DNA of 64,000 bases, from IMG/VR virus record IMGVR_UViG_2740892119_000002. One strand, 5' to 3'. Numbering within the stretch: the first letter of the stretch is position 1; every line of letters begins with the position of its first letter. A program made the position numbers and the translations under genes. The stretch is from a virus. Its lineage: Duplodnaviria > Heunggongvirae > Uroviricota > Caudoviricetes. The notes beneath the pieces were generated by a model, which made no database searches, had not been told where the DNA came from, and worked only from the letters and a program-made list of their open reading frames with translations. Shown one piece after another: positions 29,870 to 31,492 of this stretch.

Positions 29870-30665
29870 CGCGTGCGCTTAGCCGCATTCACCGCAACGG
29901 AAAGAGCATTCTTGGTGGACCTGTAGATTGGGATATGAACCCGTTACAGGAGAATGCTCTTACCTGTTACGTGCTCCGTTTCGTGGAGCTAACGGCGGGT
30001 GATCGGGCCGCACCAGGCTGGACTTATTTCAGCGTTATGCTCATGCCAGAGAATCAAACTGTGATGGTCGGTGCTGAACTCCGACACAGGGTTGTAGCAA
30101 GCCCCGCAAAGCGCGCACTACTGTAGTTGCGGCACATCAGCCTGTGCATTCACCACAATGTTGAGAACACTGGTTGTCACGCTGCAACGCAACATTTATT
30201 CGTAGATTGGGATATGACCCCGTTACGCCAGTGTTCTCAACGTTGTAGTGCCGGTTACGGTTCCGGCCAGGCCTCTTCCTCAACGGGGTGTTCTCCATAC
30301 GGACTACCGTTTATTGGTCGTTCCTGCGGTTTATGTTGTGAAGCCAGATGCTTATCTTCTGGTTGCTTCAAAGAGCTGCACTTCATCACAACGGTAAGAG
30401 CACTCGATGCATTTAAGCCAAGCCCCATAAGGGAGAATGCCCTTACCTGTTGTGTTGTGATGACCGGTGCTGATCTCCGGCTTGCGGTTATTTCAGACTC
30501 TCACGGGCGTTTAATTGCCCCGCCGAACAGCTCTTTTCCGCAATAGCTGCAATGTCTTTCGCGCATCAGCCTGCGCATTCATCACAACGGTAAGGGTACT
30601 TCGTAGGGATTCGAACCCTCTGCCAAGCTCGGCGATCTCCGACGTCGCAAAATACCCTTACCTGT
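29870..30665. repeat. four long-stem structured repeat units (tRNA-like/hairpin RNA candidates) in the tRNA operon
   Basis: Units at about 30590-30665, 30385-30450, 30160-30260 and 29895-29975 share CACAACAGGTAAGRG ... CYCTTACCGTTGTGATGAA-type flanks on the minus strand. Confidence 0.6.
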
Positions 30666-30670
30666 TGTGC

Positions 30671-30746
30671 TGGTGCCGATTAACGGACTCGAACCGCTGA
30701 CATCCTGCTTACAAGGCAGGCGCTCTACCAACTGAGCTAAACCGGC
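30671..30746 (-). tRNA. tRNA-Thr (anticodon UGU), CCA encoded
   Basis: Manual cloverleaf: 7-bp acceptor stem, anticodon loop CTTGTAA, T-loop GGTTCGAGTCC. Confidence 0.9.
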
Positions 30747-30748
30747 AT

Positions 30749-30824
30749 TGGCGATGGTGGATGGATTTGAACCATCGACCCGTTGATTAACAGTCAACCG
30801 CTCTAACCGCTGAGCTACACCATC
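30749..30824 (-). tRNA. tRNA-Asn (anticodon GUU), CCA encoded
   Basis: Manual cloverleaf: acceptor GATGGTG/CACCATC, anticodon loop CTGTTAA; 2 nt from tRNA-Thr. Confidence 0.9.
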
Positions 30825-31492
30825 ACTTGCCGGGTACGTCTCCGGCGAGGGCTTCCACCTCCGTATGCTTTTCGGCGCACCGCGCCCTGGCTGCAATTCG
30901 GTAACAGGGGATGCATAACCCTGGCTTCCAGCGTGATTAGCGCTTTCAGCATGACGGGATATACCCGTAAATTCGTGGAACTGTACCCAAAGTGCTGTTA
31001 AGCACCGCTGTTACGCTGAAAAGAAGACGCAACAGGAAAGGACGCTGACCAACAGATGGCCCCTTCTCGTTCATCTGGTTAATCACACCAGCGCCCTTAC
31101 CTGTTGTGCCTCCCCGTTCCCTAATACACAGACGGGGACACTCTGCGGTCGATTTTTTGACGGGGGACGACTCATACCCCGTGGCGTCTGGCTTCTTAGG
31201 CCGCTACCATCATCAGATCATCGTTTGCATTTACTTTAATGGTCAGTTTCTAAACCGCCGCAAAGTCGCTAACCATGACGAAAACCCTGAAAAAAACGCC
31301 CACCCGAAGATGGGCAAACTGGAAGCTCGTAACGCACTTCGGTGTTGCCACTTAGGCGTATGGTCAACCTGGCAACTCGGCGTCATGAGGGGGAAGGAGT
31401 CACTACCCCGCCATACTTGCCGCCGCGCCTGTCGCGGCTAACAGCTAAATCGCTCTATAAATCACGATTCATTGAGGCGATATTACACTAAT

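Follow-up and report, generated by a model that had tools for sequence, protein, structure and literature searches.

Does the leader of the ban operon in P1-like phages encode proteins, or is it an RNA locus in its own right? We addressed this question in a 64-kb stretch of viral DNA (IMG/VR record IMGVR_UViG_2740892119_000002; hereafter the window), which is a P1-like phage-plasmid: positions 29700–31200 are 99.9% identical to phage vB_EcoM-813R1 and 99.7% identical to RCS47, and reference P1 covers 84% of them at 98.7% identity. The P1 annotation places two plus-strand genes here, upl and plp, the second of which overlaps trnT in antisense. An earlier reading of the window from its letters alone (the sequence-only reading) held instead that no protein gene in this region is credible and that structured non-coding units with pieces resembling transfer RNA (tRNA) run in the same orientation as the tRNA genes. 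Both claims are borne out by the comparisons described below. On the minus strand, between 29768 and 31108, five long hairpins (A0–A4) alternate with tRNA-shaped blocks (B0–B4) around tRNA-Asn and tRNA-Thr, and the region is very probably a structured RNA array and not a set of genes. We further consider it probable (roughly 0.6) that the 1.7-kb untranslated ban leader is a polycistronic precursor, composed of tRNAs, pseudo-tRNAs and hairpins, that is processed to small RNAs (sRNAs).

The sequence-only reading described four repeated units spaced 180–250 bp apart. All of the sequence features on which it relied are present on the minus strand, with five hairpins rather than four; a 3′ arm/tail repeat does occur in four copies (29888–29910, 30149–30171, 30382–30404 and 30578–30600), and the measured spacing is 196–261 nt (261, 233 and 196 nt). 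Repeat analysis likewise recovered the inverted-repeat stems and the conserved tail. The longest arms, 23 nt with 91% complementarity and 54 nt apart, lie at 30151–30250, and further arms of 14 nt and 13 nt lie at 29899–29964 and 30589–30662, respectively; the tail CGTTGTGATGAATGCGCAGGCTGATGCGC is found at 30561–30590 and a compensated variant, GCACAGGCTGATGTGC, after unit 3. A 25-nt motif is common to units 3 and 4 as claimed (30202–30226 and 29923–29947, 96% identical), although it resembles an anticodon arm (GGG, CAU loop, CCC) rather than a T-loop. The T-loop piece noted in unit 1 is a T-arm pattern match, GGTTCGAATCC, at 30607–30617 in the tip of A1, and the piece noted 5′ of tRNA-Asn is a small palindrome in B0 (Table 1). 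In a pattern scan of the 64-kb window, the arm, tail and anticodon-arm-like (GGG.TCAT..CCC) motifs were absent elsewhere; looser T-arm-type and short hairpin patterns also matched real tRNAs and scattered sites.

The array is built from two kinds of module. Each A hairpin has a basal stem of 16–23 bp on a common base, CACAAC-(A)-GGUAAGRGCA / UGCYCUUWCC-GUUGUG, with differing conserved tips: T-arm-like in A1, a GGGGCUUGGCUUAAAUGCA module in A2, and a structure like the anticodon arm of initiator tRNA in A3 and A4, where it sits in A3 on the first arm of a three-way junction (30203–30223; GGG..CCC at 30209–30221). The B blocks open with GUUGYGRUG-AAU, followed by a small hairpin GCGCAggcugaUGCGC, for which B3 has the compensated pair GCACA/UGUGC and D6 has UCGCA/UGCGA; a variable centre then leads to a hairpin GCCGGagaucagcaCCGGU abutting CAYCACAAC, which pairs back to the 5′ end. 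Both the D-like and the T-like hairpin of B3 are compensated relative to B1. The GUUGYG element also pairs upstream, where it closes the A hairpin, again with compensation (CGUAAC/GUUGCG in A4). B0 ends in a T-arm-like hairpin, CCGGAGACGTACCCGG (30830–30845, from a scan for CCGG hairpins), that abuts tRNA-Asn. Individual blocks recur in other phages, B2 having relatives in Sashavirus and P22-like phages, and B(−1) standing ahead of A hairpins in lambdoid contigs and Klebsiella phage Magnus as well.

To evaluate folding, each hairpin was compared with 200 dinucleotide shuffles. None of the 200 folded as well as A1, A2, A3 or A4, and the z-scores of A0–A4 ranged from −4.6 to −7.7; for the whole 903-nt stretch, z was −9.97 on the minus strand versus −3.85 on the plus strand. 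When MAFFT was applied to several hairpin subfamilies at once it misaligned the arms, and those alignments were discarded in favor of covariance-model searches and motif-anchored gapless alignment. A covariance model built from A2-type sequences alone and run on the window matched A2 (95.9 bits), A4 (44.4 bits), A1 (42.3 bits) and A0 (~23 bits), and nothing else in 64 kb. The minus strand scored better for A2, A4 and A1 (for A1, 42.3 versus 21.7 bits on the plus strand), and the two strands were about equal for A0. The same model found copies in Felix-O1-like, Ackermannviridae, Sashavirus and T1-like phages.

The stems change in a compensatory manner across families. Among 12 non-redundant sequences, both sides change in 10 of the 19 pairs of the A2 basal stem, values that none of 500 shuffles reached, and 94.7% of the stem cells are paired as compared with 32–49% when partners are slid. 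In the stem closing the anticodon-arm-like tip (30 unfiltered phage copies and 6 non-enterobacterial loci), both sides change in all 8 pairs, with 62 compensated cells versus 19.9±3.7 in shuffles (0/500) and 80.8% of cells paired versus 30–50% when slid. The closing strands of the B blocks covary as well (A7-U, 4/5; G7-C or U, 12/12; C5-G, 4/4) in sequences gathered regardless of closure. A short leader peptide read from the tail ((A/G)UG AAU GCG CAG GCU GAU, 'MNAQADA...') was rejected: there is no Shine-Dalgarno sequence, the peptides are unconserved and some are 2–3 codons long, and the changes in the hairpin are compensatory.

That the plus strand nevertheless encodes Upl and Plp, as in the P1 annotation, is highly improbable. 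The annotation is accompanied by two predicted promoters, P1upl and P2upl, and the first open reading frame (ORF1) matches PHROG families, which are made of such annotated ORFs. Neither frame belongs to a Pfam family, however, ORF2 has no PHROG family, and the lengths shift from 63 and 125 aa in P1 to 109 and 139 aa in the window, quite apart from the antisense position of plp over trnT. Among 62 related sequences, substitutions fall evenly on codon positions 1, 2 and 3 (8/14/12 and 12/11/18), without the coding-type pattern that the sequence-only reading had named as grounds for abandoning its view, and indels of 1, 2 and 13 nt shift the frames, one of which also acquires a stop. The array modules are present in 1,024 plasmid records of PLSDB, and in an incomplete gene table no coding sequence lies under the match in the 12 records listed. 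No sigma-70-like promoter was found on either strand of 28400–31700 (3.1 expected from shuffles), a result that fits a single upstream promoter feeding the entire leader. The two frames had been described as the only ORFs here; they are the longest, and minus-strand ORFs of 53–104 aa are also present. With neither a conserved frame nor a coding-type pattern nor a protein family beyond these PHROG matches, upl and plp of P1 are almost certainly not genes.

We then asked what the B blocks are. The sequence-only reading had called for tRNA and Rfam scans of the units; ARAGORN and Rfam called no A or B unit a tRNA, even at E ≤ 10, and only tRNA-Asn, tRNA-Thr and the downstream tRNA-Met(CAT) were detected in the window. 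The three helices of B1, B3 and B4 are ordered as in a tRNA, but the closing stem measures 9 bp and the loops are non-canonical; the centres of the blocks are unrelated sequence without an anticodon arm, and no CCA follows the 3′ strand. In the pL leader of a lambdoid contig (L239, 1800–1925), an element in the B position, directly after an A hairpin and between two A-type hairpins, scores 40 bits on the Rfam tRNA model (gathering score 29). It has an acceptor stem (UGUGGUG/CACCACA) and canonical D and T arms, with 68 nt replacing the anticodon arm, and ARAGORN makes no call on it. A second contig (L084) reads GUUGUGGUG-AA-GCUCAAUGGCGAGC...GCCGGUUCGAUUCCGGC-CGCCACAAC; its T arm, GCCGGUUCGAUUCCGGC, is canonical and sits on the stem that B1 also has. 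Across contigs the T-loop decays stepwise from UUCGAUU to GUUCAGCU, AGUUCAGCA and AGAUCAGCA, on a stem and a 3′ strand (CAYCACAAC) that do not change. On this comparison, the B blocks appear to be tRNA-derived pseudo-tRNAs in which the acceptor-like stem and the D- and T-arm-like hairpins are kept and the anticodon arm has been replaced.

One B block is homologous to a prophage RNA of known expression. A segment of phage mEp460 matches B1 at 98.5% identity, and B1 is found beside two tRNAs in Klebsiella phage IME207 too. PMC7719688 describes sRNA-17 of E. coli K1, a 193-nt RNA validated by rapid amplification of cDNA ends (RACE) and Northern blotting, as lying in an mEp460-like prophage, and reports that its deletion derepresses the downstream genes yfdP and yfdR. 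Using the full-length primers and Northern probe given in that paper, we placed sRNA-17 as a 137-nt body starting CGUUGUGGUGAAUGCGCAGG followed by a 3′ DicF-like terminator hairpin. The body is present in the window at 30454–30590 (98.5%); the terminator hairpin is absent, hairpin A2 follows instead, and B1 is in this way embedded in the array. The mapped 5′ end of sRNA-17 falls 1 nt 5′ of the acceptor-like stem, within the base of the preceding A hairpin, as would be expected from cleavage by RNase P or RNase III.

Two further families of prophage sRNA can be compared with the array. B4 (29776–29896) matches Rfam STnc100 (RF02076) at 37.8 bits (E = 7.2e-6, model positions 31–147 of 206), below the gathering score of 47, and the STnc100 consensus has the same closed multi-hairpin layout as B4; B1–B3 gave no STnc100 hit. 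STnc100, which sits 75 nt after stx2B, and PasD are reported as related prophage sRNAs identified by Hfq-based methods. The layout of STnc100, PasD and sRNA-17 matches that of the B blocks, and what is accessible of their descriptions mentions neither a tRNA-like shape nor flanking A hairpins. The Qin dicBF leader is similar in two places: ~95 nt of the DicF precursor is homologous to window positions 31340–31438, and the dicF-dicB spacer of E. coli K-12 is a B block homologous to B4. The DicF precursor is processed by RNases III and E. The window lacks the sequence of DicF proper (no hit to the 52-nt model RF00039 at E ≤ 10 in 28000–32000), and in it the DicF-precursor homologue ends in its own small hairpin and an intrinsic terminator (31297–31316, terminator scan), and P1 has two tRNAs, five A hairpins and several B blocks in addition. 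YrlA (RF02553) gives a single hit, at 25.6 bits against a gathering score of 69, and it falls on the two real tRNAs, outside the array units; permissive Rfam hits to microRNA, transfer-messenger RNA (tmRNA) and YrlA models were set aside as artefacts of long hairpins or of real tRNAs.

Three observations on related loci stand apart from these comparisons. A DicF-like sRNA (UUUGGCGGURCCAGUUU...) with a terminator immediately precedes the initiator-anticodon-arm-like hairpin both in mEp460 (L004, 2445–2500) and in the lambdoid contig (L239, 2190–2238); against Rfam DicF the L239 copy reaches 29 bits, short of the gathering score. The hypothetical ORFs gp36 and gp37 of mEp460 (L004, 2378–2931) run antisense over this island of A hairpin, sRNA-17 and DicF-like sRNA and are probably spurious, like upl and plp of P1. 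The 'tmRNA' that ARAGORN calls in phage vB_EcoS_swi2 (L066, 1258–1632) joins an A/B module to the neighboring tRNA-Met; this is almost certainly a false call, because the tag peptide includes the translated tail motif.

These homologies suggest a model for the leader. Its start is marked by the C1 operator-type sequence ATTGCTCTAATAAATTT, and at the homologous place the P1 annotation has the bivalent C1 operator Oban and the C1-controlled promoter P1ban. Upon C1 derepression, one transcript would run from Pban through the array. RNase P would cut 5′ of each tRNA and, at the acceptor-like stem, of each tRNA-shaped block, RNase III would cut the 16–23-bp A stems and RNase E the linkers, releasing tRNAs, pseudo-tRNA sRNAs and hairpin RNAs and detaching the mRNA further downstream from the leader. 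The transcript would also be gated or punctuated ahead of ban, since the closing stem of B4 is directly followed by a U-run, a probable terminator. The released RNAs may act in trans, either as base-pairing regulators comparable to DicF, STnc100/PasD and sRNA-17 or as mimics of tRNA parts. We infer the processing from that of DicF, from the 5′ end of sRNA-17 and from RNase P, which processes operon spacers and the C4 RNA of P1/P7, a non-tRNA. The sequence-only suggestion of pseudo-tRNAs or hairpin sRNAs processed from the tRNA transcript thus comes close to the picture drawn from comparative data, in which processing remains the conditional part. RNase III cleavage rules derived in vivo were too unspecific to apply to the array.

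Known systems resemble parts of this arrangement. The species 1 and 2 RNAs of T4 are stable small non-tRNA RNAs within a phage tRNA cluster and, like C4, show that non-tRNA RNAs can be co-transcribed with phage tRNAs or matured by tRNA-processing enzymes; the P1 modules differ in being repeated, common to many phage families and partly tRNA-derived, and no sequence kinship is expected. The tRNA-miRNA-encoded RNAs (TMERs) of murine gammaherpesvirus 68 (MHV68), which are fused to hairpins, and the mitochondrial 'tRNA punctuation' also use tRNA-like elements as cleavage marks, although these systems are eukaryotic or organellar without homology to the array, for which the bacterial enzymes are those that we propose. 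A type III antitoxin array of the ToxI kind consists of ~36-nt tandem repeats with a ToxN gene, unlike the composite 196–261-nt units described here, and no ToxN-type gene is found among the neighbors (dmt, a membrane ORF, an SPFH lipoprotein gene and, by homology, ban).

The modules are widespread and their tips are exchanged between stems. They occur in tRNA clusters or intergenic operon sites of Felix-O1-like, Ackermannviridae, Sashavirus, T1-like, P22-like and lambdoid phages. More than 120 viral contigs contain the A2 tip GGGGCUUGGCUUAAAUGCA, which also sits within tRNA clusters of Felix-O1-like phages; in the tRNA cluster of Citrobacter phage Moogle it lies 12 nt upstream of tRNA-Arg on a wholly different outer stem (AAUAUU/AAUAUU). 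Other A hairpins carry T-arm-like tips (A1, and GUAGAGUUCGACUCUCUAC in contig L044), paired T-arm-like tips (L171, L239 and L258) or a D arm together with a T arm (Magnus). Klebsiella phage Magnus, a virulent, jumbo-type member of the Ackermannviridae, has the same order of B(−1), A hairpin and B block as P1 (L065, 1300–1850); several tiny annotated ORFs lie over its array, and the core of its A hairpin contains D-arm-like and T-arm-like pieces.

Several results weigh against the processing model. B1–B3 reach no Rfam model, and they fold only slightly better than shuffled sequence (z = −2.1 and −0.9). Because GUUGYG pairs both upstream and downstream, the fold in vivo is ambiguous. For sRNA-17, the 5′ end may be where transcription starts rather than a cleavage site. 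Among close P1-like relatives, which vary little, 15 substitutions keep the structure and 11 break it, and antisense targets in the window amount to 17 matches of only 12–13 nt, with ~12 estimated by chance. The array is also plastic: units have been lost, recombined or internally deleted among P1-like phages, and P1 and D6 have one hairpin-plus-block pair fewer than the window because of recombination between the repeated tails. Such plasticity, the tolerated A3/A4 chimera and internal deletion, the lack of a clear structure-preserving bias in close relatives and the sharing of 98%-identical blocks by very different phages, a signature of recent recombination, are what one would expect if the array were neutral debris, that is, decayed tRNA genes and recombination linkers left by modular phage exchange and kept as harmless. 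We regard this as distinctly unlikely, since stems change in a compensatory manner across families, tips of 19–30 nt stay invariant while their stems diverge, one motif is found in close to half of the complete E. coli genomes as well as in other phyla (see below), and at least one homologous block is an expressed RNA.

A second alternative is that the elements act only in cis, without products that work in trans, either through antitermination of the nut or rrn type, in which boxA-like 3′ arms (UGCUCUUAC / UGCUCUUUC) precede a stretch rich in GU and a small hairpin, or through RNase III/RNase P punctuation that counters Rho and sets the stability of the ban mRNA. The elements do lie in untranslated leaders and intergenic operon sites (the mEp460 pL leader, the dicF-dicB spacer, among structural genes of phage Sergei, 75 nt after stx2B), their 3′ arm resembles the boxA of rrn and of lambda nutR, and the effect of the sRNA-17 deletion on the downstream yfdP and yfdR could be read in this way. 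Compared with boxA (GCUCUUUA), which in a nut or rrn site is single-stranded and stands beside a boxB hairpin, however, the boxA-like UGCUCUUAC/UUC is paired in the stem and variable (UGUUCUC in A3, UACCCUU in Felix-like phages), and for that reason we keep the boxA/nut reading as a weak rival only; the hairpin loop is 6 nt, and no N-like gene or ORF exists in the window. A link to the antitermination RNA (put) of HK022, the model for RNA-based antitermination, was rejected, as HK022 lacks any of the motifs. A purely structural role would not need tips whose sequence is conserved across unrelated stems, and A2 occurs by itself within tRNA clusters of virulent phages. Cis action alone is thus unlikely, and processing to small RNAs is the reading that we retain.

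The tips of A3 and A4 deserve separate consideration. They share the motif AC-GGG-YUCAUAW-CCC-AAUC, read as GGG-GUCAUAU-CCC within ACGGGGUCAUAUCCCAAUC in A3 and as GGG-UUCAUAU-CCC within ACGGGUUCAUAUCCCAAUC in A4. Three G-C pairs closing a CAU loop are a hallmark of initiator tRNA, and both tips show this arrangement, with a 7-nt loop and U33. The lambdoid version is ACGGGCUCAUAACCCAAUC, in which CGGGCUCAUAACCC is identical at 14 of 14 positions to the anticodon stem-loop of E. coli metY. In all subfamilies a long basal stem leads to a three-way junction, one arm of which consists of the covarying closing stem, the AC/AAUC loop, GGG/CCC and the 7-nt loop. A flank-anchored scan returned 120 copies, mostly unchanged, with 15 loop variants that include CUCAUUC and CUCAUUA; changes between subfamilies fall mostly at loop positions 32 and 38. 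The mEp460-type element is found in 2,493 of 5,426 complete E. coli genomes (2,142 at ≥80% coverage), upstream of yfdP-like, rdgC-like or HD-phosphohydrolase genes, and is not in K-12.

Beyond the enterobacteria, real copies had to be separated by their closing stems from chance hits, which dominate a pattern scan of one genome per species (an estimated ~1,100 expected). At least 7 contiguous closing pairs are present in 9 of 112 distinct pattern hits, as compared with an estimated ~0.1 by chance, and these nine include non-enterobacterial loci with 9–10-bp stems of unrelated sequence: a Planctomycetaceae contig with an adjoining lambda-family portal gene, two Saccharibacteria contigs and a locus beside a mycobacteriophage GP88-family gene. 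A copy upstream of a DnaB helicase gene has a closing stem of only 4 bp. The contigs with the AC-GGG-NUCAUWH-CCC-AAUC hairpin are L366 (at 5628), L356 and L440, L433, L441 and L405, which comprise Planctomycetaceae, Saccharibacteria and other non-enterobacterial loci. Rfam 15 gave no hit at the tip sites, including the non-enterobacterial ones, and a search of the available literature library for the core sequences gave no match. We tentatively suggest, as a minority view, that AC-GGG-(Y)UCAU(W)(H)-CCC-AAUC is an undescribed cross-phylum phage RNA motif that mimics the anticodon arm of initiator tRNA and engages a universal reader: the 30S P site with initiation factor 3 (IF3), methionyl-tRNA synthetase (MetRS) or VapC-like nucleases of tRNAfMet.

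If so, the tips and pseudo-tRNAs might serve as decoys for tRNA-directed host factors. A3 and A4 would titrate or inhibit a reader of the initiator anticodon arm, be it MetRS, the 30S P site with IF3 or a tRNAfMet-cleaving PIN nuclease of the VapC type, and the T-arm tips and pseudo-tRNA blocks would soak up tRNA-binding defence nucleases. The initiator hallmark, the match to metY and the confinement of most subfamily changes to positions 32 and 38 all agree with this idea, as does the link of the motif to phage tRNA genes; its presence on covarying stems of unrelated sequence in Planctomycetaceae and Saccharibacteria at least, near a portal gene in one contig and a GP88-family gene in another, would imply a universal partner. 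There are precedents in the thrS operator of E. coli and in pseudoknot I of the dicistrovirus intergenic region (IGR) internal ribosome entry site (IRES), where a hairpin copies an anticodon stem-loop for a tRNA-binding partner; A3 and A4 differ in copying initiator tRNA at the tip of a long hairpin in phage leaders, with an extra AC/AAUC internal loop and a putative partner. That loop is itself an objection. The anticodon-like stem is not the continuous 5 bp of a tRNA but 3 bp followed by an invariant internal loop, 5′-AC/3′-AAUC, that is foreign to tRNAfMet. Moreover, A37 is kept in the window, but a sizeable subset of relatives has U at 'position 37' (CUCAUUC), which is found in no tRNA; one P1-like phage has the motif deleted; and no defence nuclease of tRNAfMet is known to act on P1. 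We therefore hold the decoy reading, a specific form of the counter-defence idea in the sequence-only reading, to be rather unlikely, a minority hypothesis compatible with the processing model.

The positions of the modules and of flanking features are given in Table 1. Downstream of the array, the minus strand of 28698–29742 encodes a 78-aa membrane ORF and a 275-aa SPFH/Band-7 lipoprotein (PF01145, E = 1e-30), and ban, which has the orientation of the array and its tRNAs, follows trnI in P1-like records, from which we place it near the array by homology. The array itself had been thought to be a locus replacement relative to P1. The array is, however, also present in reference P1, where it bears the annotations upl and plp and the tciABC genes lie downstream of it; the true replacement in the window is that of tciA-tciB-tciC by the membrane ORF and the SPFH lipoprotein gene. 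Upstream, the dmt ORF is 862 aa long in the window as compared with 754 aa (2,265 nt) in reference P1 and is longer again in Ro157c2YLVW, so that the length of the methyltransferase differs among P1-like phages.

Table 1. Features of the ban operon leader and its surroundings, in the 5′ to 3′ order of the transcribed strand.
Feature	Position	Strand	Description
dmt	31500–34088	minus	First in order
C1 operator-type sequence	31493–31509	minus	ATTGCTCTAATAAATTT; Pban/Oban (Op72) region; from sequence
DicF-precursor 5′ homologue	31290–31438	minus	'dicF-like region' of P1 (misc_feature); alignment with Qin dicF upstream region
Block B(−1)	31109–31289	minus	Conserved, untranslated; GTTTTCGT..GCGACTTTGCGG..TAGAAACTGACCA..AAATGCAAACGATGAT; terminal hairpin then CACAAC; repeat family D2
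Hairpin A0	31028–31108	minus	Upstream of tRNA-Asn; long stem CACAACAGGTAAGGGCGCTGG / CAGCGTCCTTTCCTGTTGCG; fold z = −4.60; A-model 22.5–23.9 bits
Block B0	30825–31027	minus	Small palindrome ACGGGTATATCCCGT (30954–30968); from sequence
tRNA-Asn (GTT)	30749–30824	minus	ARAGORN; Rfam tRNA 74.5 bits
tRNA-Thr (TGT)	30671–30746	minus	ARAGORN; Rfam tRNA 72.9 bits
Hairpin A1	30583–30670	minus	16-bp stem with one bulged A; T-arm-like AGGGTTCGAATCCCT in tip; fold z = −6.05
Block B1	30454–30588	minus	tRNA-shaped; 9-bp closing stem GUUGUGAUG/CAUCACAAC; D-arm-like GCGCAggcugaUGCGC; variable centre; T-arm-like GCCGGagaucagcaCCGGU
Hairpin A2	30383–30463	minus	Conserved tip UCCCUUAUGGGGCUUGGCUUAAAUGCA; fold z = −5.97; A-model 95.9 bits
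Block B2	30335–30392	minus	58-nt mini version; closing stem GUUGUGA/UCACAAC and hairpin CCAGaagauaagcauCUGG
B2 extension	30242–30334	minus	Ends in hairpin CCGGAACCGTAACCGG, then CACTACAAC
Hairpin A3	30151–30250	minus	23-bp basal stem into three-way junction; fold z = −7.65
Block B3	30058–30159	minus	tRNA-shaped; AUUGUGGUG..GCACAggcugaUGUGC..UCGGAguucagcaCCGA..CAUCACAGU; fold z = −0.91
Linker	29973–30057	minus	Small hairpin GCUCCacgaaacGGAGC; precedes A-type hairpins in other phages too
Hairpin A4	29893–29972	minus	Motif ACGGGUUCAUAUCCCAAUC (29924–29944; GGG..CCC at 29930–29942); fold z = −7.09; A-model 44.4 bits
Block B4	29768–29898	minus	tRNA-shaped, STnc100-like; closing stem UUGCGGUG/CACCGCAG; probable terminator; fold z = −3.40
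tRNA-Met(CAT) (trnI)	28595–28670	minus	Downstream of array; ARAGORN

The array is akin to the RNAs of phage tRNA clusters and to the sRNA islands of prophages, and one of its components, the initiator-anticodon-arm-like hairpin, could be something new. The analysis corrects a 20-year-old annotation, upl and plp, in the model phage P1, and points to the ban operon leader as an RNA factory. It joins the DicF locus, sRNA-17 and STnc100/PasD in one modular, apparently tRNA-derived system of temperate and virulent enterobacterial phages and ~1,000 P1-like plasmids, and it adds at least two RNA hairpin families without a match in Rfam 15, one of them in nearly half of complete E. coli genomes and in other phyla. 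If the tip does mimic initiator tRNA, phages would control or protect translation initiation, and the P1 array would amount to a natural 'tRNA-scaffold' cassette system, delivering the mimics along with tRNAs. The locus thereby offers a testable link between phage tRNA clusters and the manipulation of the machinery that reads tRNAs or of defences directed at them.

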